From an uncultured Planctomycetota bacterium (GTDB taxonomy: Bacteria > Planctomycetota > PLA2 > JAEUHO01): DNA of 64,000 nt. Positions 6,268-21,161 of this stretch are shown piece after piece (the first letter of the stretch is position 1; each line of letters opens with the position of its first letter). Both the position numbers and the translations under genes were made by a program. The notes beneath the pieces are model-generated. The model was not told the origin of the DNA. It worked only from the letters and a program-made list of their open reading frames with translations, and ran no database searches. The DNA lies in NCBI GenBank assembly GCA_963752285.1, contig CAVVXN010000001.1:544001-608000 (forward strand). The letters run 5' to 3'.

Positions 6268-8142
6268 ATGGGCTTCGCGCTCCGCGTGTTCGACGGCGAG
6301 CGACAGACCGTCCGGGTCCAGCAGATCGACGCGACGAGCGTCAAGATCGGCCGCACGGAGGCATGCGACATCGTCCTCGCGAGTCCGTACGTGTCGCGCG
6401 AGCAGGCGGTCATCCGCGCGCTCGACGGCCGGTACGTCTTCGAGTCCGTGGGGCGCAACCCGAGCTTCGTGAACGGCAAGGAGATCCACTCGGGGCAGAC
6501 CGTCGAGGTCGAGCCCGACGACGAGATCCGGATCGCGGAGTTCTCGATCTACATCGAGGGGGCGAAGCGGCGGAAGGAAGACGAGTTCGACGTCGCGGGC
6601 GCGCTCGCCGCGATCGAGCTCGGGCTGCACTCGCGCCTCCTCGAGAGCGTGGATCTGCGCGAGCTCGGTCGGAGCGGCGTCTCGGAGGACACGAACCCGA
6701 AGCTCCGTCTCGCGCTGGAGGACCTGGTCCGCGCCGCCGTGCCGGAACAGGGCGGCGGGATGGCGCCGGAGGTGCTGGCGCACGCGCTCCGGGAGTGCCT
6801 GTACAGCGAGATCGTGCAGGAGGTCCTGGCCCGCGCGGCGGGGCCGGGGGGGGCCGACCAGACCGGCGGCTTCGCGGGAAAGCTCGACGCGATGCTCTCG
6901 ACGGTCGTGAACTCCTTCTGCAAGCGCCTCGAGATCGAGGGCACGAAGAAGTCGGTCCGGCAGGACCTGCGCCGCGTGGACCAGGGGTTCTCCGCCGTCT
7001 TCGACGCGTTCGTGGGCGGCGCGGCCCCGGAGCTCAAGACGCTCATCGTCCGCCGCTTCCTCACGCGCGAGATCATGAACCTCGTGTGCGGGTTCGGTCC
7101 CCTCCAGGACCTGCTCGAGCTCCCCAACACGAGCGAGATCATGGTGGTCCACAAGGACCTCATCTACATCGAGCGCGAGGGCGTCCTCGAGCGGCTCCAC
7201 CGCACGTTCATCACCGACGAGATCCTCGTCAGCGTGATTCAGCGCATCGTCGAGCCCCTCGGGCGTCGGATCGACCGCTCCACGCCGCTCGTGGACGCGC
7301 GCCTCCCCGACGGCTCCCGCGTGAACGCGGTGATTCCGCCGCTCGCCGTGAAGGGCCCCTGCCTCACGATCCGGCGGTTCTCGAAGACCCCGCTCACCGC
7401 CGCCGACCTCGTCCGCTTCGGGTCGCTGACCGAGCCGGCCGTCGAGTTCCTGAAGGCCTGCGTGCACGGGCGCAAGAACATGATCATCTCCGGGGGCACC
7501 GGTTCCGGCAAGACGACGCTCCTCAACGTCCTCTCGGCCTTCATCCCCGAGGACGAGCGGATCGTGACCATCGAGGACTCCGCCGAGCTGCAGCTCCGGC
7601 AGGCCCACGTCGTGACGCTCGAGACGCGGCCGCCGAACGTGGAGGGCAAGGGCGCGTACACGATCCGCGACCTGGTCCGCAACGCGCTGCGCATGCGGCC
7701 CGACCGCGTGATCGTCGGTGAGTGCCGCGGCGGCGAGTCGCTCGACATGCTCCAGGCCATGAACACGGGGCACGACGGTTCGCTCACGACCCTCCACGCG
7801 AACTCCCCCGAGGACGCCATGCTGCGCCTCGAGACGATGGTGCTGGAGGCCGTGGACCTCCCCGTCCGGGCGATCCGCAGCCAGATCGAGGCCGCCGTGC
7901 ACGTGATCGTGCAGGCGTCGCGGCTGGCGTCCGGGAAGCGCATGGTCACCCACATCTCCGAGGTGGTCGGCATGGACCCGGAGGACGGTCGCATCCTCAC
8001 GAACGACATCTTCGAGGAGCGGGACGGCCAGCTCCTGCAGAGCGGCTACCTGCCCACGTTCGTCGGGGACCTCGTGGACAAGGGGTACATCGATCCGGGC
8101 GTGCTCTTCGCCGCGTCCGTGGAAGAGGAGGCCTCCGCATGA
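6268..8142 (+). CDS. cpaF: FHA-domain-fused TadA/CpaF secretion ATPase
   Basis: N-terminal FHA (IGR...VSREQA...RNPSFVNG). Walker A GGTGSGKT, TIEDSAEL, LRMRPDRVIVGECRG, AMNTGHDGSLTTLHANS. Confidence 0.93.
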   Translation: MGFALRVFDGERQTVRVQQIDATSVKIGRTEACDIVLASPYVSREQAVIRALDGRYVFESVGRNPSFVNGKEIHSGQTVEVEPDDEIRIAEFSIYIEGAKRRKEDEFDVAGALAAIELGLHSRLLESVDLRELGRSGVSEDTNPKLRLALEDLVRAAVPEQGGGMAPEVLAHALRECLYSEIVQEVLARAAGPGGADQTGGFAGKLDAMLSTVVNSFCKRLEIEGTKKSVRQDLRRVDQGFSAVFDAFVGGAAPELKTLIVRRFLTREIMNLVCGFGPLQDLLELPNTSEIMVVHKDLIYIEREGVLERLHRTFITDEILVSVIQRIVEPLGRRIDRSTPLVDARLPDGSRVNAVIPPLAVKGPCLTIRRFSKTPLTAADLVRFGSLTEPAVEFLKACVHGRKNMIISGGTGSGKTTLLNVLSAFIPEDERIVTIEDSAELQLRQAHVVTLETRPPNVEGKGAYTIRDLVRNALRMRPDRVIVGECRGGESLDMLQAMNTGHDGSLTTLHANSPEDAMLRLETMVLEAVDLPVRAIRSQIEAAVHVIVQASRLASGKRMVTHISEVVGMDPEDGRILTNDIFEERDGQLLQSGYLPTFVGDLVDKGYIDPGVLFAASVEEEASA

Positions 8143-9009: not shown

Positions 9010-9903
9010 ATGCTGCTCGCAGCCGACGTGGTGATCTTCCTGGCCGTGTTCCTCGTGGTCATGTCGGTGGGCAGGATCGCGGAGTTCCGCTACGACTACA
9101 CCCTCGTGGCCGACATCCTGGCGGAGCGCCGCCGGAAGGCCCTCGACGAGGCGCCGCTCCGCCGCCTCCTCGACCCGCTCGTCGTCGGGCTGTCCATCGT
9201 CGTGCGGCGCCTCGGGCTCGCGGGGCTCCGCGCCCGCGTGCAGCACGAGCTCATGCAGGCGGGGAACCCCTGGGGCTACCGGCCCGAGGAGTACATCGCG
9301 TGGTCGATGTCCCTCGCGCTCGTGGTCGGCGGGGGCGTCGCGGGAGCCCTTCTGGTCACGGGCCGCTTCAACGTGTTCTTTCCCCTGCTCGCCACGGCGA
9401 TCGTGTACCTGGCCACGATGCAGGGGCTCAAGTCGCGCGGCGACCGCCGCCGCGTCGAGCTCGAGCGCCAGCTTCCCTACTTCCTCGACCTGACGTCGCT
9501 CTCGATGGGCGCGGGCGCCACGTTCCTGCAGGCGTGCGAGTCGGCGATCCAGCGGCCCACGAAGGGCCCCCTCGAGGAAGAGGTCGAGCTCATGCTCCGC
9601 GAGATCCAGGCCGGCACGCCCATGGGGCAGGCGCTCCAGAACATGACGAAGCGCATCGAGAGCGCCGAGCTCGCCCAGATGATCCAGGCGGTGCACCAGG
9701 GCGAGGAGCTCGGCACGCCCCTCGTCCGGGTCTTCGAACAGCAGGCGGACCTGAACCGCTACCGGCGCAGCAAGCGGGGCGAGCAGATCGCCGCGAAGCT
9801 CCCGAACCGCCTCGCCGTGCCCACTGTGTTCCTCATGCTCGCCGTGTTCCTGCTGCTGTTCGGCCCGATCATCATCAAGGCGACGCGTGGAGGGCTGGCC
9901 TGA
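9010..9903 (+). CDS. tadC: TadC (T2SS F family) inner-membrane platform protein
   Basis: ERQLPYFLDL...ELGTPL...RRSKRGEQIAAK...FLLLFGP; strong RBS. Confidence 0.88.
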   Translation: MLLAADVVIFLAVFLVVMSVGRIAEFRYDYTLVADILAERRRKALDEAPLRRLLDPLVVGLSIVVRRLGLAGLRARVQHELMQAGNPWGYRPEEYIAWSMSLALVVGGGVAGALLVTGRFNVFFPLLATAIVYLATMQGLKSRGDRRRVELERQLPYFLDLTSLSMGAGATFLQACESAIQRPTKGPLEEEVELMLREIQAGTPMGQALQNMTKRIESAELAQMIQAVHQGEELGTPLVRVFEQQADLNRYRRSKRGEQIAAKLPNRLAVPTVFLMLAVFLLLFGPIIIKATRGGLA

Positions 9904-11030: not shown

Positions 11031-13904
11031 GTGGGGCAGACGTTCGACGCCGATCGCGATCTGACGGGCGAGGAGGTGGGGGGGCGGTACGTGCTCCTCG
11101 CGCGCATCTCCTCGAGCCCTCGCTCGTCGGTGTACCAGGCCCAGGACACCAAGCTCATGCGCCGCGTCGCCGTGCGCTTCCCGGGGCGCGAGGCGCTCGC
11201 GGCGGCGGGGTTCGCCGAGCGGTTCCAGCGGGTCGTCCGCTCGGTCTCGGACCTCCAGCACGACGGGCTCGTCGGCGTCGTGGACTTCGGCGAGCACGGC
11301 GAGCTCCCGTACGCCGTCGTCCACCACGTGGGGGGCGAGAGCCTGGCCCAGCGCCTCGGGGCGAGGCAGGCCCCCCAGAGCCCGGCCGAGGTCGTCGCGT
11401 GGATCCACCCGGTCGCCGCCGCGCTCGACTACGTGCACGAGAAGGGCGAGGCGCACGGTGCCGTGGGGCCGAGGACGGTCCTCCTCGACAAGCCGCCCTC
11501 CACGCGGGCCTACCTGGCCGATTTCACCGTCCGCCGGGCGCTCAGCGACCAGCGACCCGACCCGAAGGACGATCAGCGCGGGCTCGCCGCCGCGGCCCTG
11601 GCCGCCCTCACGGGGAAGGCGCCGCTGGCCCCGGGCCAGACCGCGCCGTCGCTCTCCGGCGTCGTCCCCGACGCCGCCGCCAAGGCCCTGGCCCGGGCCC
11701 TCGACCCGGACCGCGCGAAGCGGTTCGAGAGCGCGGGCGCCTTCGCGGCGGCGTTCAGCTCGGGTCTCGCCGCCACATCCGCCACGCCGAAGGGCGGCGC
11801 GCCGAAGGGCGGCGCCAAGGCCGCGGCCAAGGGGGCGCCGATGGCGACGGTGTCGGACTCCGACACCCTCGGCTTCGGCCGGCCGCGGCCGGCCGCGGCG
11901 GAGGCCCCCGCGCCCGCCCCCGCGGGCGACGGGGACCCGCACGCGACGCGCGGCATCGTCATGCGCGGGCGCAAGAAGAGCAGCATGCCGATGGTGCTCC
12001 TCCTCGTGGTGCTGGTCGTGGGGGCGATCGCGTTCGTCGCCGTCCAGAACGGGGGCAGCGGGAACCAGCAGAAGAAGGTGGACGACAACGTCGCCCCGAC
12101 GCTCAAGGTCGTCCAGCCGGTGGACGGCTTCCGCACGAACGCGCCCGACGCCACGGTCGCGGGCACCTGCGACGATCCGAAGGCCATCCTCACCGTGGAC
12201 GACGCGACGGTTCCCATTCAGCCGGACGGGACGTTCCGCACGGTCACTCGCATCCCCAAGGAGGGCGAGCAGACGATCCGCGTGAAGGCGACCGACCAGG
12301 CCGGGAACGCCACCCTCCAGACGGTGAGCGTCGTGCGCGACTCCAAGCCGCCGACGCTGACCATGCTCGGGCCCGACGCGAAGACCCTCATGACGCCCAC
12401 GACGGCGCCCACGATCACGGTCGAGGGCCAGGTCGGCGAGCCGGACGCCGAGGTCGAGGTCGCCGGCCAGAAGGTGACCGTGGACCCCGACGGCAAGTTC
12501 AAGGCCGAGGTCGAGATCCCCGACGACGGCGCGAACACGATCACGATCGTGGCGCGCGACGACCTGGGCAACGAGTCGAAACAGCAGGTGGTGGCCCATC
12601 GGCGGCTGGTCATCTGCTGCGACACGCTCGCCATCACCTCGCCGCTCGACGGGACGGCGACCCGGGAGTCGTCCATCGAGGTGACGGGGCTCATGGAGGA
12701 CCCGCGCGCGAGCGTGAAGGTGAACGGCCAGGCCGTGACCGTCGGACGCGACGGCGTGTTCCGGGGCACGGTGCCGCTCGAGGGGGAGGGCGAGCACGAG
12801 ATCGTCGTGGAGGCCTCCGACCCGAAGGGCCACCACGGGACCGCGCGCGTGCGCATCACCCGAGACCTGACCCCTCCCGTACTCCAGATCACCGAGCCGA
12901 AGTTCTGGGTCCGCAACGCGGATCGCGTCCTCGGGACGTCGTCGGGTCCGCTCAACCTGAGCGGGACGGTGGCGGACGGGACACGGTGCAGCCTGTACGT
13001 GAACGGGCTGCTCGGGAGCGTGACGGGGAAGACGTGGAACGCCACGATCAACCTCTCCGTCGGGGAGCAGCTCGTGAACATCTGGGCCGTGGACGCGGCG
13101 GGGAACCGCTCGGACCCCCTCGTGTTCAAGGTCACGATCCCGCGCGCCACCATCTCGGGTCTCACCTACAAGGGCGAGAACGAGAAGGGGTATCAGGAGT
13201 TCACGCTCGACAAGGACCCGACCGTCGTGCTCGTCCTCGTCCCCGAGGGCGGGTACGTGCGTGGCGGCATGATCGGCGACCCCGACGTGCAGCCCGACGA
13301 GATGCCCCAGCAGCGCATCATCATCGGGGCGTTCCTCGTCGCGAAGGGCGAGACGACGTGGTCCCAGTACCTCCGGTTCTGCAAGGACAGTGGCCACGCG
13401 CTCCCTCCGGGCGTGGAGGAGAAGGGTCTGCTCCTCGACCACCCCGTGAACCAAGTCACGTTCGACGACGCCATGGCCTACTGCAAGTGGGCCGGACTGC
13501 GACTCCCCACCGAGAGCGAATGGGAGCGGGCCGTCCGCTTCCGTTCCGAGGACACGATCTGGCCGTGGGGGTCCAAGTGGGACCCGAAGGCGGCGAACAT
13601 GGCCGGCATCCGCGGCAACACCACTTCCGTGTCCGCGTACCCCGCGACCGGCGACCTGCTCCTCCTCGACGCGGCGGGCAACGTGTCCGAGTGGTGCGCG
13701 GACTGGTACGCCGCGGACGCCTACAGCGAGATGCCCGTGAAGGATCCGCAGGGCCCGAAGAGCGGGACGAAGCGCGTCGTCCGCGGCGGGAGCTGGCGTG
13801 ACAAGTCGGAGCGCGGCCGCTGCTCGGACCGGGAGGGCGAAGATCCCTCGGCCCGTTCGAACTGGATCGGCTTCCGCGTGGCGGCGAGCGTGGGCGCGAA
13901 GTGA
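11031..13904 (+). CDS. Degenerate kinase-like domain + TM + Ig-like repeats + FGE-sulfatase (SUMF1) domain protein
   Basis: N-terminus follows PknB layout (GGRY...VYQAQDTKLMRRVAVR) with lost catalytic motifs. After the TM come about four beta-rich repeats (e.g. ATDQAGN, ARDDLGN, AVDAAGN). C-terminus has HPVNQV, RLPTESEWE, GNVSEW, RGGSW, GFRV. Confidence 0.85.
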   Translation: MGQTFDADRDLTGEEVGGRYVLLARISSSPRSSVYQAQDTKLMRRVAVRFPGREALAAAGFAERFQRVVRSVSDLQHDGLVGVVDFGEHGELPYAVVHHVGGESLAQRLGARQAPQSPAEVVAWIHPVAAALDYVHEKGEAHGAVGPRTVLLDKPPSTRAYLADFTVRRALSDQRPDPKDDQRGLAAAALAALTGKAPLAPGQTAPSLSGVVPDAAAKALARALDPDRAKRFESAGAFAAAFSSGLAATSATPKGGAPKGGAKAAAKGAPMATVSDSDTLGFGRPRPAAAEAPAPAPAGDGDPHATRGIVMRGRKKSSMPMVLLLVVLVVGAIAFVAVQNGGSGNQQKKVDDNVAPTLKVVQPVDGFRTNAPDATVAGTCDDPKAILTVDDATVPIQPDGTFRTVTRIPKEGEQTIRVKATDQAGNATLQTVSVVRDSKPPTLTMLGPDAKTLMTPTTAPTITVEGQVGEPDAEVEVAGQKVTVDPDGKFKAEVEIPDDGANTITIVARDDLGNESKQQVVAHRRLVICCDTLAITSPLDGTATRESSIEVTGLMEDPRASVKVNGQAVTVGRDGVFRGTVPLEGEGEHEIVVEASDPKGHHGTARVRITRDLTPPVLQITEPKFWVRNADRVLGTSSGPLNLSGTVADGTRCSLYVNGLLGSVTGKTWNATINLSVGEQLVNIWAVDAAGNRSDPLVFKVTIPRATISGLTYKGENEKGYQEFTLDKDPTVVLVLVPEGGYVRGGMIGDPDVQPDEMPQQRIIIGAFLVAKGETTWSQYLRFCKDSGHALPPGVEEKGLLLDHPVNQVTFDDAMAYCKWAGLRLPTESEWERAVRFRSEDTIWPWGSKWDPKAANMAGIRGNTTSVSAYPATGDLLLLDAAGNVSEWCADWYAADAYSEMPVKDPQGPKSGTKRVVRGGSWRDKSERGRCSDREGEDPSARSNWIGFRVAASVGAK

Positions 13905-14661: not shown

Positions 14662-15147
14662 TCAGTCGCCCTCGGCATCCTCCGGGGCGGCGCCTTGGCC
14701 CTCGCGCTCCGGGTGCGCTCCGCGGGGGAACGAGGCCTCGAGCCCCTGCGAGAGGGCCGCGCGGTCCGCGTCCGAGAGGCGGGCGTCGGGGTGGAGGAGC
14801 AGGTAGTTGGAGGGGGGCATGTCTCCCGACCTCACCTCCTCGGCGGCGTCGTCGGCGTGCCGCTGGGGCTGGTCGAATCGCGAGAAGTTGAGGTGGCGGC
14901 GCCCCTCCTCGACGTCGTCCGTCACCAGCCAGGAGACCGGTGCGACCCAGGCGTACCACGGCCATCTCGTCTCGTTGCTGTGGCAGTCGAAGCAGGCCTT
15001 CCGGGCGAGGGCCTCCGTCGCCGGCGCGTTCCACGGGGGCCCCTTGACCACGGGGGGGTTCTTCGAGGGGCGGCCGAGGGGCAGCGCCTGGATCAAGACG
15101 GCCACGACGGCCAGCCCGATGAAGGTCCATTTCGCAAGGCGGCGCAT
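14662..15147 (-). CDS. Haem-binding domain (Haem_bd-like) monohaem cytochrome c
   Basis: ACFDCHSNETRWPWY...HLNFS...MPP..Y...HP.ARLS signature; N-terminal TM; strong RBS. Confidence 0.85.
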   Translation of the reverse strand: MRRLAKWTFIGLAVVAVLIQALPLGRPSKNPPVVKGPPWNAPATEALARKACFDCHSNETRWPWYAWVAPVSWLVTDDVEEGRRHLNFSRFDQPQRHADDAAEEVRSGDMPPSNYLLLHPDARLSDADRAALSQGLEASFPRGAHPEREGQGAAPEDAEGD

Positions 15148-15218
15148 GTCGGTCTCCTCCCGTGACGGCGGCGAACGCGCCCGCCCGTAGAATCCGCGGC
15201 GGGAGGGTTTGGACCCCC

Positions 15219-18200
15219 GTGCCCCTCGACGCGTTCCTCGACCCGAGCTGCGGCTGCCTCGTCCTGGCGAACGACTCGGACGTCTACGATACGGTGCTCC
15301 GGCGCGCCGTCGAGACGGCGAGCCTCTCGGACGGCCGGTCGCTCGTCCCGGTCCGGGGCGATCCCGCCGACCCCGACTCCGTGTTCGCCGACGAGACCCT
15401 CCGCGCGCTCGAGTGGGGGGTGGCGATGATCGTGGACCTCGTCGGTACGGTTCCCGACGTCTTCCGACTCGTCCGGTGGCACGCCCGCGCCCGCACCCGG
15501 AGCGTCCTGCTGCTCCGACGGGGCCGGACCGCGCTCCCCTTCGAGGTCCACGAGCTCCCGGTCCGGCCGTACGAGCCCAGCGACCTCGAGGGACGGCCCG
15601 CCACCCGCACCCGCGTCGCGACGTGGGCGAGCGCCGCGGCCGCAGCCCGCGCCGACGAGGGCCCTGCGAACGTCCGGCTCACGCGGCTCCGCGACGCGCT
15701 CGCGGTCCGGCGCCGTCGCGAGCAGAACGGCGTGTACGACGCTCTCGTCCTCGCCGACCGCGACGTGCTCGAGGGGAACGCGCCCGGCGCGCTCCGTGCG
15801 ATGGACCACGCGCTGGCCGCCGAGCCGACGGCGCCCGACCTGCTGCTGAGGACCGCGCTGCTCCTGCGCGAAGGCGCGCGCTACCCCGAGGCGGCGGAGC
15901 TCCTGGAGCGCGCCGTCCGCTCGGCGCCGGCGCGCGCCGCGTGCTGGCGGGAGCTCGGGATCGCGCGCGACCGCGCCGGCCTCCCCGGTGCCGAGGACGC
16001 GCTGCGCCGCGCGGTCGCGATCACGGAGGACTACGAGGCGCTCGTGTCCCTCGCGCTGCTTTGCGCGCGGAATGAGACGTCGGACGACGAGCCCGCGCGC
16101 CTCCTCGAGCGCGCCATCGACGTCGCCGAGGGCCAGCTGAACCTCGTTCTGCCCGCGCTCGTGCACCGCGCGGGCCGCGAGGGGCGCATCCGGCTGACGA
16201 ACCCCGAGCGAGAGCGCGTGCTCCGGGTGCTCGAGATCCGCGCCGGACAGGCGCTCGGGGACCCCGCCGAGGACGCACCCTGGAGCCACTTCGACGCGGC
16301 CCGCGCGCACCTCCTCCTGGGCGATGGCGCGGCCGCGCTCGCGGTCGTGAGCGCGGCGCGACCCCACCTGCACGCCGCCTGGAACGCCGACACCTTCGCC
16401 CGCAGCCTGGACGCGCTCGAGCGCGCGGGCGCCGGGGTCGGGCCGCTCCGTGAGGTCCTGGGCCTCCGCGCGCGCACCGTCCGGACCGTCGGGCCGGTCG
16501 TGCCCGTCCCGCCCCGCTTCACCGTGGCGGCGCGTCCGCCGGCGTGGTTCGCCGAGAACGTCCCGTGCATGGCGGCGTGCCCGGTCGGGACCGACGCCGG
16601 GGCGTACGTGCACCACCTCGCGGAGGGGCGCTACGCGGAGGCGTTCCACGCCGCGCGCGCGCCCAACCCCTTCGCCTCCGTGTGCGCGCGCGTGTGCGCC
16701 GCGCCGTGCGAGGACGCGTGCCGGCGCGGGCGCGTGGACGAGCCGGTGGCGATCCGGCCGCTCAAGCGGTTCCTGACCGAACGCTTCGGGGCCGAGAGCC
16801 CCGACAACCGCGTCGGACAGGTGCTGGCCGCGGACCGGGCGCCGTGCATCGAGGGCGAGGCGTACGGCAGTCACCTGAGGAAGATGGGGGGCCCCGCGCC
16901 GGGGACCGGACCGAAGGTCGTGATCGTCGGCGGCGGGCCCGCCGGGCTCGCGTGCGCGCACGACCTCGCGCTGCTCGGCTACCGGCCGACGGTGTTCGAG
17001 GCCTCGAACGCGCTCGGCGGGATGATCCGCCACGGGATCCCGGTGTACCGCTTGCCGCGCGAGCTCATCGACCGCGAGATCGACGAGATCCTCCGCCTGG
17101 GCGTCGAGGTCCGTCTCGAGTGCGCCCTCGGCCGCGACCGCACGCTCGAGAGCCTCCTCGCGTCCGAGTACGAGGCCGCGTTCCTCGCCTCCGGCGCGGG
17201 TCGGGGGCGATTCCTCGACGTGGAGGGCGCGGACCTCGACGGCGTCGTTCGCGCGATCGAGTACCTGATCAACGTGAACCGCGGCTACAAGGTCGAGCTC
17301 GGCCAGCGGGTCGTGGTGGTCGGCGGCGGGAACGTCGCGCTGGACGTCGCGCGCACGGCGCGCCGCGGACGCCCGCCGGCGGACGCCGGCGCCGGGCGCT
17401 CGCTCACGGATCTCGGCGGCGCGCTGCCCACGCGCTTCCTCCGGTCCGCCTTCCGCGGCGACGAACGCGAGGTCCACGTCGTCGCACGCCAGCCCATGGG
17501 CGGGTGGCCCGCGGAGCGGAGCGTGCACGGCGCCGAGGAGCTCATGGAGGCGCGTCGCGAGGGCGTCGTCTTCCATCCCCTGCGCGGTGTGCGCCGCATC
17601 CGGGGCGAAGACGGGCGCGTGGCGGGCGTCGAGCTCGCCGAGGTCGTGCAGATCCGCGACGCGTCCGGGCGGTACGCGCCGTCCTACGGCGCCCACGCCG
17701 CCGAGTCGATCGCCTGCGACACGGTGGTCCTCGCGGTCGGGCAGGAGCCGGAGCTCGACTACCTCGAGGGAACGCGCTCGCTCGCGCGCACGAAGGACGG
17801 GCTCGTCGAGGTGGACCGCGCGACGCTCGCGACGAGCCTGCCCGGCGTGTTCGCGGGCGGGGACGCCGCGTTCGGGCCGCGAACCCTGATCGAGGCCGTG
17901 GCCGACGGCAAGCGTGCGGCGCGCGGGATCCACGCCTTCCTCCGCTCGGCCGCCAGCGCCGGGCCGCCGGCGCGGCACGTCCGCTTCACGGAGGTCCCGC
18001 CGCGGGCGGTCCCCACCGAGGCGGGGTACGACGCGATCGAGCGCGTCGCGCCCCCGTCCTCGGGCCTCGACCGCCGGACGGGCATCGCGGAGGTGGAGTC
18101 GGGGTACGACGAGGCGGAGGCGAGGCGGCAGGCGGCCCGGTGCCTCGTCTGCCACGTACAGACCGTGTACGACGGCTCGCGGTGCATCGCCTGCGGCCGG

Positions 18201-18425
18201 TGCACCGACGTCTGCCCCTACGCGTGCCTCTCCTTCGTCCGGCCGGACGAGACGGACCTCCAGGGGATCGACCCCCGGGCCGTCGGGGGCGCCCCGGCCG
18301 AGGCCGTGTATCTCGTGAAGGACGAGGACCGCTGCATCCGCTGCGGCCTCTGCGCGGAGCGGTGCCCGACCGGCGCGATGACGATGGAGCGGCTCGAGAT
18401 GTCCGTGGCGGGTGTGGGCGGATGA
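15219..18425 (+). CDS. Fusion: nucleoside-deoxyribosyltransferase-like/TPR N-terminus + GltD/NfnB-like FAD/NAD(P) oxidoreductase with C-terminal 2x[4Fe-4S]
   Basis: CMAACP, CARVCAAPCEDAC, GGGPAG, GGGNVALD, FAGGD, then CIACGRCTDVCP and CIRCGLCAERCP. About 440 extra N-terminal aa include TPR-like helices. The start is uncertain (15162 or 15219). Confidence 0.85.
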   Translation: MPLDAFLDPSCGCLVLANDSDVYDTVLRRAVETASLSDGRSLVPVRGDPADPDSVFADETLRALEWGVAMIVDLVGTVPDVFRLVRWHARARTRSVLLLRRGRTALPFEVHELPVRPYEPSDLEGRPATRTRVATWASAAAAARADEGPANVRLTRLRDALAVRRRREQNGVYDALVLADRDVLEGNAPGALRAMDHALAAEPTAPDLLLRTALLLREGARYPEAAELLERAVRSAPARAACWRELGIARDRAGLPGAEDALRRAVAITEDYEALVSLALLCARNETSDDEPARLLERAIDVAEGQLNLVLPALVHRAGREGRIRLTNPERERVLRVLEIRAGQALGDPAEDAPWSHFDAARAHLLLGDGAAALAVVSAARPHLHAAWNADTFARSLDALERAGAGVGPLREVLGLRARTVRTVGPVVPVPPRFTVAARPPAWFAENVPCMAACPVGTDAGAYVHHLAEGRYAEAFHAARAPNPFASVCARVCAAPCEDACRRGRVDEPVAIRPLKRFLTERFGAESPDNRVGQVLAADRAPCIEGEAYGSHLRKMGGPAPGTGPKVVIVGGGPAGLACAHDLALLGYRPTVFEASNALGGMIRHGIPVYRLPRELIDREIDEILRLGVEVRLECALGRDRTLESLLASEYEAAFLASGAGRGRFLDVEGADLDGVVRAIEYLINVNRGYKVELGQRVVVVGGGNVALDVARTARRGRPPADAGAGRSLTDLGGALPTRFLRSAFRGDEREVHVVARQPMGGWPAERSVHGAEELMEARREGVVFHPLRGVRRIRGEDGRVAGVELAEVVQIRDASGRYAPSYGAHAAESIACDTVVLAVGQEPELDYLEGTRSLARTKDGLVEVDRATLATSLPGVFAGGDAAFGPRTLIEAVADGKRAARGIHAFLRSAASAGPPARHVRFTEVPPRAVPTEAGYDAIERVAPPSSGLDRRTGIAEVESGYDEAEARRQAARCLVCHVQTVYDGSRCIACGRCTDVCPYACLSFVRPDETDLQGIDPRAVGGAPAEAVYLVKDEDRCIRCGLCAERCPTGAMTMERLEMSVAGVGG

Positions 18426-18937
18426 GCGCGCCGCGGGACGAGTCCACGAGGCGCGCGCTGCTCTCGCGGGTGGCCGTGTGGGGCGCCGGCCTCGGCGTCG
18501 CCGGGCACGTGGTCGCCTGGACCAGCGCGCTGGCCCCGAAGGTCACGTACGAGCCCTCGCCGCGCCGGCGGATCGGCCGCCCCGACCGGTTTCCCGAGGG
18601 ACACACGTTCCTGCCCGACGAGCGCGTGTTCGTCCTCCGGCACGGCGCGTCCTTCCGCGTGCTGTCGGCCGTGTGCACCCACCTCGGGTGCACGGTGGGG
18701 GTGGAGGGAGAGGGCTATCACTGTCCCTGCCACGGGAGCCGCTTCGACGCGGAGGGGAAGAACACGGGCGGGCCCGCGCCGAGTCCCCTCGCCTGGCGTC
18801 CGGTCGTCCGGGGGCCGGGCGGCGTGCTCGTGGTGGACCTCTCGCGCGAGGTCGGTCCCCAAGTGACGCTCGAGGTGCCGCCGAGCGCACCGGCCGACGC
18901 GCCGCCGTCCGCCGCGCCGGAGGGCTCCGGAGGGTGA
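18422..18937 (+). CDS. Rieske [2Fe-2S] protein of a Rieske/cyt b complex
   Basis: Tat-like TRRALL, CTHLGC and CPCHGS boxes, GGPAP; ATGA overlap. Confidence 0.92.
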   Translation: MSAPRDESTRRALLSRVAVWGAGLGVAGHVVAWTSALAPKVTYEPSPRRRIGRPDRFPEGHTFLPDERVFVLRHGASFRVLSAVCTHLGCTVGVEGEGYHCPCHGSRFDAEGKNTGGPAPSPLAWRPVVRGPGGVLVVDLSREVGPQVTLEVPPSAPADAPPSAAPEGSGG

Positions 18938-20259
18938 GCGGGGACGGGCGCTCCCCGGGGCCGCGGCCCTTCTGGACCCTGTTCCCGCGGACGCCGCGCG
19001 AGTCGTCGGACGCGGTCGTCCGAAACCTCGCCCTCCACGCGTTTCCCGCCCGCGTCACGAAGGCCTCGCTCTCGTGGATCGCGAGCGGGTGGCTCGGCGC
19101 GATCTCGCTCCACCTCTTCCTCGTGCTCTCGGCGACCGGGGTCCTCCTCCTCTTCGTCTACGTCCCGAGCGTCGAGCGCGCGTACGCCTCCGTCAAGGAC
19201 ATCGAGTTCACCGTGCGATTCGGCGCGTGGATCCGGGGGACGCACCGCGTCGCCGCGCACCTGATGGTGGTCGCCGTCGTGCTCCACATGGTGCGCGTGT
19301 TCCTCACCGGCGCGTACAAGCGCGAGGGGCCGCCGGGGTCGTTCCGTCCGCTCAACTGGTGGCTCGGGCTCGCGCTCCTCCTCGTCACGCTCGGTCTGTC
19401 GTTCACGGGGTATCTCCTGCCCTGGGACCAGCTCGCGTACTGGGCCGTCACCGTGGGCACGCGGATCGCGGCCGCCGTCCCCGTCGTCGGCGAAGGGGCC
19501 CGCCGGCTGCTCCTCGGCGGCGACGAGGTCGGCCAGGCGGCCCTCCTGCGCTTCTACGTGCTGCACGCGTTCGTGCTGCCGATGGTCGCGACGCTCCTCG
19601 CCGCGTGGCACTTCTGGCGGATCCGGAAGGACGGCGGCCTCGCCGCGGGCGCGCGCGTCGCGACCGAGGCGCGGCGCGCGACGGTCGCGAGCCCGCCGAC
19701 GGCGGGGAAGACGTACACCCTCCTCGGCGCCACCCAGGGCGGAACGGTCGAGTCGTTCGCGCCCGCGGCCCTGCTCGACCGAGAGAGCGTGCACGGCGTG
19801 CCCGCGCTGCCCCGCCGCGGCCTCGCCACGTTCCTCGCGGTGCTCGCGTTCACGAGCCTCGTCGGACTGCTCCTGCACGCGCCCCTCGAGGAGGCGGCCA
19901 ACGCCGCGGTCACGCCGAACCCGGCGAAGGCACCGTGGTACTTCCTCTGGCTCCAGGAGCTCGTGTCGATCCTGACGTTCCGCGTGGGCTCGTTCGTCGT
20001 GAACGGGACGCTCCTGGGAGGCATCGTCCTCCCCGGCGTGCTGCTCGCGCTCCTCGCGGCCTGGCCCCTCCTCGACAAGAGCCCCGCGGAGGCGGCGGGC
20101 GTGTGGTTCCACCCCTCGCGCCGCCGGCAGGTCCGCGTATTCCTGCTCGGCCTCGCGATCGTCGTCGTGCTGATGCTGATCGGCACGTTCTTCCGCGGAC
20201 CGCACTGGTCCTGGGTCTGGCCCTGGCGCGGCGCGCCCGCGCCGCCGTCTTGGGTCTGA
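18934..20259 (+). CDS. Cytochrome b (b6-like N-terminal part fused to subunit IV-like part)
   Basis: Haem ligands in RGTHRVAAHLM...LHM and LHAFVLP...WHF; FTGYLLPWDQ; TPNPAKAPWYFL; GTGA overlap. Confidence 0.92.
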   Translation: MSGDGRSPGPRPFWTLFPRTPRESSDAVVRNLALHAFPARVTKASLSWIASGWLGAISLHLFLVLSATGVLLLFVYVPSVERAYASVKDIEFTVRFGAWIRGTHRVAAHLMVVAVVLHMVRVFLTGAYKREGPPGSFRPLNWWLGLALLLVTLGLSFTGYLLPWDQLAYWAVTVGTRIAAAVPVVGEGARRLLLGGDEVGQAALLRFYVLHAFVLPMVATLLAAWHFWRIRKDGGLAAGARVATEARRATVASPPTAGKTYTLLGATQGGTVESFAPAALLDRESVHGVPALPRRGLATFLAVLAFTSLVGLLLHAPLEEAANAAVTPNPAKAPWYFLWLQELVSILTFRVGSFVVNGTLLGGIVLPGVLLALLAAWPLLDKSPAEAAGVWFHPSRRRQVRVFLLGLAIVVVLMLIGTFFRGPHWSWVWPWRGAPAPPSWV

Positions 20260-20270
20260 GGGCACCGGCC

Positions 20271-21161
20271 GTGACGCTTCCCCCGATCTCGCCCTTGGAC
20301 CGCCGCCGCGCGCGGGCCGACCGCTGGATGATCGCCGTGTCGGGCCTCGTGCTGGTCCTCGCCGTGGCCGTCGCGGTGATCGACGAGGCGACGCCCGGGT
20401 GGGCGCGGTACCAGGCCGAGGCGCGCGGCCTCGCTGCGCCCCACGGCATCGAGGTCGCGGAGGGCATCCAGCAGATCTGGATCCCCGAGATCTCCCGCGT
20501 GGACCGCTGCGTGACCTGCCACGTCACGATCGAGGCCGGGCCGGAGCTCGCCGACGCGCCGAACCCCGTCCGCTCGCACCCGCGCCCCGAGCTGCTAGTC
20601 GCGCACCCGGTCGAACGCTTCGGCTGCACCCTGTGTCACGGGGGACAGGGCGCGGCGACGAGCCTCGCCGACGCGCACGGCGACGTCCCGTTCTGGGACG
20701 AGCCCCTCCTCGACGGGCGCCGTGCGCGCACGTACGGCCTCACCGCCTCCGACCTCCTGGAGATGCGGTGCAACGTCTGCCACCGCCGGGACACGAAGGT
20801 CGAGGGCATGCCGCTCCTCGACGCCGCCAAGGCCGAGGTCGCGAAGCGACGCTGCGTCCGGTGTCACGTGCTCGACGGCGAAGGCGGGACCCGCGGGCCC
20901 GACCTGACGTACGAGGGCGACAAGCACCCGACCCGGTACGACCTTCCCGAGAGTCTCGTCGGCACGCGTTCCGCGCTCCGGTGGCACGTGGAGCACTTCC
21001 TCGACCCCAAGCGCATGTCGCCGGGCACCGAGATGCCGAAGTTCACGCTGACCGACCGTCAGGCCGCGGGCCTCGCGCTGCTCGTCCTGTCGTGGCGGCG
21101 CCCGCGCCTTCCCGCGTCGTGGCTCCCGTCGCCGACCTGCACGCCGGCCGGGGGACCGTAG
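20271..21161 (+). CDS. Membrane-anchored tetrahaem cytochrome c
   Basis: N-terminal TM; CVTCH, CTLCH, CNVCH, CVRCH; C-terminal GPDL...MPKF class I c domain. Confidence 0.88.
   Translation: MTLPPISPLDRRRARADRWMIAVSGLVLVLAVAVAVIDEATPGWARYQAEARGLAAPHGIEVAEGIQQIWIPEISRVDRCVTCHVTIEAGPELADAPNPVRSHPRPELLVAHPVERFGCTLCHGGQGAATSLADAHGDVPFWDEPLLDGRRARTYGLTASDLLEMRCNVCHRRDTKVEGMPLLDAAKAEVAKRRCVRCHVLDGEGGTRGPDLTYEGDKHPTRYDLPESLVGTRSALRWHVEHFLDPKRMSPGTEMPKFTLTDRQAAGLALLVLSWRRPRLPASWLPSPTCTPAGGP

Follow-up and report, generated by a model that had tools for sequence, protein, structure and literature searches.

Results

A GltD-like flavoprotein gene with a large N-terminal module

We analysed a 64,000-nucleotide (nt) stretch from an uncultured Planctomycetota bacterium (assembly GCA_963752285.1, contig CAVVXN010000001.1, positions 544,001 to 608,000; hereafter the window, with positions counted from its first letter), in which a single gene of 1068 amino acids (aa) heads a respiratory operon. 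Its product comprises, in this order, an alpha/beta domain resembling nucleoside 2-deoxyribosyltransferases (NDT) and TIR domains, tetratricopeptide repeats (TPR), a linker, a GltD/NfnB-like iron-sulfur (FeS) flavoprotein and a 2x[4Fe-4S] ferredoxin tail. The N-terminal part appears to descend from a stand-alone family of conflict-system proteins whose catalytic-type motif it has lost, and it may now act as a docking or dimerising platform of the flavoprotein. The gene and its parts, with the basis of each assignment, are as follows (AF2, AlphaFold2; GC3, G+C content at third codon positions; pLDDT, predicted local distance difference test).

15219-18425, + strand: whole fused gene, 1068 aa; single open frame, continuous GC3, identical entry P0006 in the protein collection
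15201-15207, + strand: Shine-Dalgarno-like GGGAGGG, 11 nt before the GTG start; read from the sequence
15219-15659, + strand: N-terminal alpha/beta domain, residues 1-147, degenerate NDT/DNPH1- and TIR-like; AF2, hhalign, motif census
15687-16460, + strand: TPR-like helical solenoid, residues ~157-414; AF2 helices, Foldseek, homology to the TPR half of P0043
16476-16532, + strand: disordered linker, residues 420-438; pLDDT <50, variable alignment columns
16557-16787, + strand: Fer4_20 (two FeS clusters, GltD/DPD type); Pfam PF14691, E 2e-17
16914-17909, + strand: FAD/NAD(P)-binding Pyr_redox_2; Pfam PF07992, E 2.5e-31
18165-18389, + strand: C-terminal 2x[4Fe-4S] ferredoxin domain; Pfam Fer4, Fer4_7 and Fer4_10, E 6.9e-11

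The window has a G+C content of about 75% and contains many spurious open frames. The + strand frame 15162-18425 is the sole frame with a coding signature, and as its GC3 stays at 0.90-1.00 per 180-nt interval throughout 15192-18340, a hidden frameshift can be discounted. The GTG at 15219 is the likely start of the gene; translation from it yields 1068 aa, the length of the identical collection entry P0006, and Pfam residue numbers were shifted by 19 to count from this start. All strings from which an NDT-like/TPR module fused to a respiratory flavoprotein had originally been predicted were found in this translation (DVYDTVLRRAVE at about residues 21-32, LVPVRGD at 42-48, IVDLVGTVPDVF at 71-82 and LLRRGRTALPFEVHELPVRPY at 98-118), and they share one open frame with the GltD-like part, where Pfam detects Fer4_20, Pyr_redox_2 and the Fer4 dicluster. 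The predicted order of module and flavoprotein also stood, whereas the extent of the module, which had been drawn up to position 16540, had to be corrected: the folded module ends near residue 415, the linker occupies residues 420-438 and the flavoprotein starts near residue 445 (about nt 16550). Alignment columns in the linker are variable among homologues, with an insertion in P0014.

The enzyme half (residues ~445-1068) thus carries Fer4_20, Pyr_redox_2 and the 2x[4Fe-4S] domain, the complete set of a GltD/NfnB-type FeS flavoprotein. The GxGxxG motifs for FAD and NAD(P) read GGGPAG and GGGNVA, the Cys clusters are likewise seen in the translation, and the C-terminal ferredoxin motifs are CIACGRCTDVCP and CIRCGLCAERCP. 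NCBIfam returned GltD-like 'NAD(P)-binding protein' models, every one under its curated cut-off, and the closest solved structures are a chain of NfnABC (9bov/9bp5, E 6e-78) and NfnI (5jca, E 2e-58). Relatives of the enzyme half are abundant, with 7065 of 8000 candidates scored at E <=1e-50; among the matches listed at 47-53% identity, lengths are 624-685 aa and source labels Acidobacteria, Thermoanaerobaculia or Polyangia.

Predicted structure of the N-terminal module

An AF2 model of the N-terminal part, calculated from a 16-sequence alignment, reached a mean pLDDT of 85.8 and placed strands at residues 12-16, 43-47, 69-73, 96-101 and 115-118 with helices between them, followed by a long helix (123-147), a helical repeat (157-414) and the disordered stretch at 420-438. 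When the first domain was modelled alone (57 sequences), pLDDT rose to 93.7 with a predicted template-modelling score (pTM) of 0.89. Five parallel-type strands with flanking helices make it a three-layer alpha/beta domain of the Rossmannoid kind. Foldseek searches with the 474-aa model returned only TPR proteins (the OGT TPR, a consensus TPR and MamA; E 2e-5 to 1e-4), and Pfam TPR_16 and TPR_19 matched the repeat region weakly, under their cut-offs; TPR-S (PF20308) was not listed for this region at E <=10. The model accordingly has the alpha/beta Rossmannoid domain and the TPR helices that the prediction called for, although the fold alone does not separate TIR/NDT from receiver domains.

With the N-terminal domain alone, Foldseek gave nothing at E <=0.001, the best rows being flavodoxin-like, receiver and small-GTPase folds. 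Structural comparison (VIA-align) yielded Z scores of 9-10.4 for receiver domains (root mean square deviation 3.1-3.9; 116-129 residues aligned), 8.7-9.7 for TIR domains (TIR-STING 9.7, RPS4/RRS1 9.3, TIRAP 9.0) and 8.8 for MilB, an enzyme of the NDT superfamily (root mean square deviation 3.4; 119 residues aligned). Because a generic flavodoxin-like Rossmannoid fold does not discriminate, the placement on the TIR/NDT side rests on sequence. A profile of the fused N-terminal domains (A2) had no match among PDB sequences at E <=10, and the sole match in the Pfam, NCBIfam and PADLOC scans, DUF1330 at E 0.045, was taken as noise.

Homology to a stand-alone family of conflict-system proteins

When a domain profile built from eight genomes was compared with 1.84 billion representative proteins, 133 matches were obtained, 10 of them at E <=1e-30 and from the same family. 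The ~120 distant matches are typically 420-450 aa long, with the domain at about residues 30-165 followed by TPRs; 13 of 30 that were scanned list Pfam TPR-S (PF20308), several under cut-off, and single matches carry TIR_2 with a ParA-like N-terminus or MAP3K_TRAF_bd (PF13281; P0098). These stand-alone proteins share the motifs CFVVMPFG, DFD.IY, LEYSR, vlaDi.GlNaNVfYELG.RHRAR, GT and PFD. BLASTP of window residues 1-450 against the stand-alone protein P0043 (431 aa) gave E 3e-28 and 27% identity over residues 22-409; a profile of 24 stand-alone sequences (A3) aligned with the window gene (E 4.3e-54; positions 29-419 of 432), and hhalign of the fused and stand-alone N-terminal domain alignments returned 99.3% at E 1e-20. 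In its own genome the window gene is the sole full-length match of A3, the other 28 matches being TPR-only. By these comparisons the homology is far beyond chance and spans the whole ~400-aa module, alpha/beta domain plus TPR. The original prediction had drawn a parallel to NDT-like/TPR proteins with an NVFYELG.RH...PFD motif, and the homology extends over the full length of stand-alone proteins that carry it (CFVVMPFG ... NANVFYELG.RHR ... PFD). Common to the module and the stand-alone ~430-aa family are the order of domain and repeats and the TPR landmarks WRELGI, DAPWS.FD and TF..L.

The stand-alone family in turn has matches among known enzymes and effectors. A profile of 16 stand-alone N-terminal sequences matched 12 DNPH1/Rcl entries in the PDB, with E-values of 0.0017-0.054, and a single NDT with 1.2; these values are marginal, and in the profile alignment the YELG of the family falls on the GYELG of the enzymes. 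PADLOC model PDLC00733 ('TIR' effector) matched five of six stand-alone relatives (E 6e-20 to 9e-6). Pfam scans of single stand-alone sequences gave weak matches, to CAP12-PCTIR_TIR (PF10137) at E 0.003-0.007 and to Nuc_deoxyrib_tr (PF05014) at E 0.18-0.2. The window protein itself was matched by none of the TIR models of PADLOC or Pfam.

A scan of one genome per species confirmed 424 loci of the stand-alone family in many phyla. Neighbourhoods were analysed for 21 of 31 loci, ten having been dropped as the target was not found by a simple open reading frame caller. No further than two genes from the target, 7/21 loci encode another TPR-S protein (alpha/beta-hydrolase-TPR-S or patatin-TPR-S) and 6/21 a ThsB_TIR, TIR_2 or CAP12-type TIR, so that TPR-S or TIR-type genes accompany 10/21 targets in total; other loci have CHAT, SLATT, a HEPN/nucleotidyltransferase pair, MazE (toxin-antitoxin), or an integrase or transposase. 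Rieske, cytochrome b or GltD-like genes were found within two genes of the target at 0/21 loci. The stand-alone neighbourhoods are of the conflict-system type, which upholds the original link to such systems through TIR, TPR-S, CHAT, SLATT and toxin-antitoxin genes and agrees with the TIR/DrHyd/SLOG 'conflict system' picture in the accessible part of, for example, preprint 10.64898/2026.10.19.760177. At seven loci a paralogous gene for another effector plus TPR-S stands in tandem with the target (downstream in L021, L024, L028, L047 and L049, upstream in L057 and L059), the partner encoding either an alpha/beta hydrolase-TPR-S (448-484 aa) or a patatin-TPR-S, a layout suggestive of exchangeable effectors arrayed on a common sensor scaffold.

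Loss of the catalytic-type motif and single origin of the fused copy

We aligned 36 fused and 38 stand-alone proteins for a census of the family motifs. The Glu of YELG would correspond to the catalytic nucleophile of NDT/DNPH1 enzymes. The counts were as follows.

Glu of YELG: stand-alone 37/38; fused 0/36 (Leu in 31, the window included)
Gly of YELG: stand-alone 36/38; fused 0/36
Two Asn of N.NV: stand-alone 35/38 and 37/38; fused 0/36 each
His of RH: stand-alone 32/38; fused 1/36
Four-residue MPFG loop: stand-alone 31-37/38 by position; fused deleted in 36/36
Asp of PFD: stand-alone 34/38; fused Glu in 27/36 (PFE in the window)
Asp ending strand 3 (D73): stand-alone 38/38; fused 36/36

The erosion of NVFYELG, originally noted for the window protein, is hence a property of all fused copies, none of which has the Glu. 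Core residues are generally retained, and besides D73 the positions R46, E65, R92 and R100 are near-invariant in the fused alignment. The window module consequently differs from the stand-alone family in being without the motif Glu, both Asn, the Gly, the His and the MPFG loop, as well as in sitting on a 620-aa flavoprotein in a respiratory operon and not in a conflict-type neighbourhood. With DNPH1/Rcl and NDT (the PF05014 superfamily) it shares the fold class; having Leu at the Glu position and no direct sequence match, it is not a member by catalytic residues. Similarly, the TIR effector models PDLC00733 and PF10137 match the parent family, whereas the window protein has no direct match to them and lacks the acidic catalytic residue.

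In a maximum-likelihood tree of 92 rows, calculated by a quick method and leaving out stand-alone matches outside 380-500 aa, all 36 fused modules group in a single clade, supported at 100 in the Shimodaira-Hasegawa-like approximate likelihood ratio test (SH-aLRT). Its stem measures 1.76 changes per column, and under midpoint rooting stand-alone proteins lie on both sides, the fused clade being nested among them. As read from these alignments, this indicates one capture, then fast change and then retention.

Distribution and synteny of the fusion

Searching with residues 1-450 brought up 16 proteins besides the window's own (17 in all), with identities of 42-55%; most are 1054-1131 aa long and have flavoprotein domains, and two of the 16 carry the source label Planctomycetota. 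Together with searches using the enzyme half, the fused architecture was observed for 36 proteins with lengths of 990 aa or more. Of 40 related genomes, 11 had a match at E <=1e-60, eight with open frames of at least 1071 aa and the others cut by contig ends. The fused open frames in independent genomes measure 1071-1143 aa. A 1689-aa 'open frame' at locus L008 (G020:C10) was rejected as a high-G+C artefact with low-complexity Arg/Pro/Gly sequence upstream of the conserved start. Among fused homologues the identity is 42-55% in the N-module versus 59-67% in the enzyme half.

The gene order N-module, flavoprotein, Rieske protein, cytochrome b, cytochrome c was observed in 7/7 relatives with fetched flanks, in one of which the N-terminal domain was seen only in the separate genome searches and not in the flank comparison. 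The cytochrome b gene was detected by tblastn in all seven (67-72% identity), as was the tetrahaem cytochrome c gene, one copy being truncated by a contig end. Of 401 genomes sampled evenly across the phylum, nine contained the N-terminal domain, all from the window's own family (8/16 plus the window genome), and at E <=1e-5 it was found in 0/384 genomes of the phylum outside that family; one sampled genome of the same genus, 80% complete, had no match to the domain. In a sister-family genome the operon is the same but for its flavoprotein, which is unfused, 635 aa long and begins immediately ahead of the conserved W..VPC..ACPV motif; the N-module was not found in this 18-kb locus.

A misassembly or a lost stop codon that joined two genes had been named as a possible cause of a singleton fusion. 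Public contig sets matching the region share a small part of it (0.05-0.08 of words), and no RNA set was listed among them. Their contigs are short pieces of relatives, none of which bridges 16468-16581, and this would be in line with such an artefact. On the other side stand the 36 proteins of at least 990 aa, which come from several sources and have the same architecture, the 1071-1143 aa open frames in independent genomes and a GC3 that is unbroken across the junction. Conserved full-length fusions, fixed synteny and the unfused sister state exclude misassembly or a lost stop, and we give this explanation practically no weight; far from a singleton, the fusion is conserved in 36 proteins with synteny in 7/7 relatives.

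The respiratory operon

Downstream of the fused gene lie three further genes of the operon, and a divergent gene is found upstream.

18422-18937, + strand: Rieske iron-sulfur protein gene; twin-arginine signal and motifs CTHLGC and CPCHGS in the translation
18934-20259, + strand: cytochrome b gene, 441 aa; Pfam Cytochrome_B E 1.4e-38 and translation
20328-21161, + strand: membrane-anchored cytochrome c with four CxxCH; Pfam Cytochrom_C and translation, start codon uncertain
14662-15147, - strand: small membrane protein with Haem_bd (PF14376); divergent, 71 nt between its ATG and the GTG of the fused gene

The fused gene heads the operon and is followed by the genes for the Rieske protein, cytochrome b and the tetrahaem cytochrome c, with the ATG of the Rieske gene overlapping the stop of the fused gene (ATGA) and the GTG of the cytochrome b gene overlapping the Rieske stop (GTGA). 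Flavoprotein, Rieske protein, cytochrome b and multihaem cytochrome c are thus encoded together, as in operons for flavoprotein-linked Rieske/cytochrome b complexes, and the product of the fused gene is the predicted cytoplasmic NAD(P)-linked FeS flavoprotein subunit of a Rieske/cytochrome b/tetrahaem-c complex.

Comparable complexes are known from Kuenenia: the Rieske/cytochrome b complexes Kustd1480-1485 and Kuste4569-4574 include an NAD(P) oxidoreductase subunit, to which one of the electrons from quinol oxidation is proposed to pass (PMC12954380, available part). By description there, they share with the window operon the Rieske protein, cytochrome b, multihaem c and a cytoplasmic FAD/FeS NAD(P) oxidoreductase related to NfnABC, and 9bp5 is the nearest solved structure for both flavoproteins (PMC12954380 for Kuenenia). 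They differ in having hexa- or octahaem cytochromes, as opposed to a tetrahaem c and one long cytochrome b here, and an N-terminal TIR/NDT-TPR module is not mentioned for them in the available part of PMC12954380. The direction of electron flow in the window complex could be either, with NAD(P)H as donor or with NAD(P)+ as acceptor as proposed for anammox. Since the anammox model has electrons leave through the homologous kind of subunit, the label 'electron-input' in the original prediction is not established.

An anammox-family genome that we searched has four GltD-like loci (E <=1e-20) on contigs C33, C122, C51 and C77, and cytochrome b on C115, C64, C139 and C140. Of these four GltD-like loci, one is a GltD-FlpD fusion and another lies next to 2-oxoacid:ferredoxin oxidoreductase genes. 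At locus L103 of this genome (7145-9679, + strand) a GltD-like FeS flavoprotein with a C-terminal FlpD (MvhD-like) part is followed directly by a small TPR protein of 134 aa.

Elsewhere in the window genome a second cytochrome b gene was observed (G000:C5:1604298-1604834; open frame 375 aa), so the flavoprotein-linked complex is not the sole Rieske/cytochrome b-type complex there. The Haem_bd gene was without a tblastn match in the fetched flanks of the seven relatives. Further upstream in the window, a 957-aa protein encoded at 11031-13904 (+ strand) begins with a protein-kinase domain, contains several Ig-like/glucodextranase-B domains and ends in an FGE-sulfatase domain. A pilus- or secretion-type cluster, likewise upstream of the fused gene, consists of a T2SSE-type secretion ATPase to which an FHA domain is fused (6268-8142, + strand) and a T2SSF-type platform protein (9010-9903, + strand).

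Discussion

Both parents of the fused gene are of known kinds, namely flavoprotein-linked Rieske/cytochrome b operons and TIR/DrHyd-TPR-S conflict proteins; the fusion architecture appears to be unreported, and no published description of the fusion, of its catalytic-motif loss or of its fixation in one family was found in open-access papers and preprints. From the homology, motif loss, conservation, single origin and operon context of the gene, we infer a role of the module as scaffold or regulator. A complete stand-alone conflict-system protein (effector domain plus TPR/TPR-S) would have been fused once, via a flexible linker, to the N-terminus of the flavoprotein, and the fused copy would have lost the catalytic-type Glu and both substrate loops, kept its fold and been retained since. 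Presumably no longer an enzyme, the module may act on the cytoplasmic side as a regulatory platform for protein docking or dimerisation. There it would anchor the flavoprotein to the dimeric cytochrome b core or set its orientation, or else, like the head of ASK1 (MAP3K5), bind a partner protein. We estimate the probability of such a non-catalytic docking/dimerising regulatory platform at roughly 0.55, a protein-binding role being favoured because the module retains its TPR solenoid but neither substrate loop. The domain may, as the original prediction had it, be a 'ligand-sensing or scaffold' domain.

The likeness to ASK1, whose N-terminal domain we take to be DrHyd-like, consists in an alpha/beta domain followed by TPRs, both N-terminal to a catalytic domain, and is a works-like analogy only. 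The ASK1-linked Pfam family MAP3K_TRAF_bd (PF13281) matches the parent-family relative P0098 and a neighbour gene at L057, and it did not match the window protein in the Pfam scans. In ASK1 the alpha/beta domain and the TPRs dimerise, each domain touching the TPR of the other protomer, and the head also binds a redox protein and modulates the catalytic domain (PMC10972558, available part).

Several observations weigh against the docking platform or its derivation. The N-terminal domain of the window protein has no direct match in Pfam, PADLOC or PDB sequences, and its NDT/TIR kinship appears to run through a single intermediate family, which itself reaches DNPH1 only marginally (E 1.7e-3). In the fold search, receivers (Z 10.4) come out level with TIR domains (9.7) and MilB (8.8). 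The conserved D73, Arg46, Glu65 and Arg92 leave room for a small-ligand pocket, the flexibility of the linker speaks against a module built rigidly into the enzyme, and in the one anammox-family genome searched no GltD-like gene stood beside a cytochrome b gene.

Alternatively, the module could still be a small-molecule sensor whose degenerate pocket, or whose TPR, takes up a nucleotide or an NAD-derived ligand and thereby controls allosterically how electrons pass between NAD(P)(H) and the cytochrome b core. The invariance of D73 and near-invariance of R46, E65, R92 and R100 would suit it, as would the use of NAD(P) by the enzyme half itself and the position of the parent family in a nucleotide- and NAD-centred TIR/DrHyd assemblage, as far as the accessible part of preprint 10.64898/2026.10.19.760177 goes. 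We nevertheless consider it possible yet rather unlikely, as the loops that would line the substrate are lost, with MPFG deleted in 36/36 and N.N..YELG.RH replaced. That the domain is still an enzyme using other residues is much less probable: the fold is intact and under constraint, and an acidic residue (LPFE) takes the place of the PFD Asp in 27/36, but the near-invariant Glu (37/38) has become Leu in 31/36 and is never Glu, and five more near-invariant positions are gone. A defence role might also have been kept, with the TPR sensing an invader and turning the flavoprotein into an abortive-infection effector that does harm, for instance by draining NAD(P)H or blocking respiration. The conflict-type neighbourhoods and effector-plus-sensor layout of the parent family would speak for this; family-wide inheritance and fixed synteny in a core respiratory operon, unlike mobile and patchy defence genes, and the lack of mobile or defence genes flanking the fused gene in the window make it quite improbable.

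Receiver domains are defined by a conserved Asp/Thr/Lys set. If the N-terminal domain were a CheY-like pseudo-receiver in phospho-signalling and not a TIR/NDT relative, the top structural matches (receivers, Z up to 10.4) and the position of D73 at the end of strand 3, where receivers have their phospho-acceptor, would be accounted for. Of the set, only this strand-3 Asp is present, the Thr/Ser after strand 4 and the Lys after strand 5 not being seen (LLLRRG, VRPY); no Response_reg match was obtained at E <=10 for the window protein or seven relatives, TIR matches lie within 1 Z unit of receivers, and the sequence homology to the YELG family is strong. We therefore hold a receiver to be very improbable and retain the docking or dimerising platform as the preferred reading.

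As a more tentative extension, which we regard as rather doubtful, the module could be a domesticated immune-type sensor controlling respiration, which binds a protein or NAD-derived signal and gates the NAD(P) branch of the complex. To our knowledge, the coupling of quinol oxidation to NAD(P)+ reduction by a flavoprotein-linked Rieske/cytochrome b complex has been proposed but never demonstrated. A large, separately folded and conserved add-on would offer a natural handle on how the flavoprotein is attached and controlled. As one origin, an unfused sister state and the parent family are all known, the gene also provides a clean, datable case of a conflict-system effector-sensor protein that would have lost its chemistry and been recruited into core metabolism. 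If the module were indeed a domesticated sensor, it would give this family of Planctomycetota a switch of its own between quinol-driven NAD(P)+ reduction and NAD(P)H oxidation, and would be a bacterial counterpart of an ASK1 head reading the redox state.

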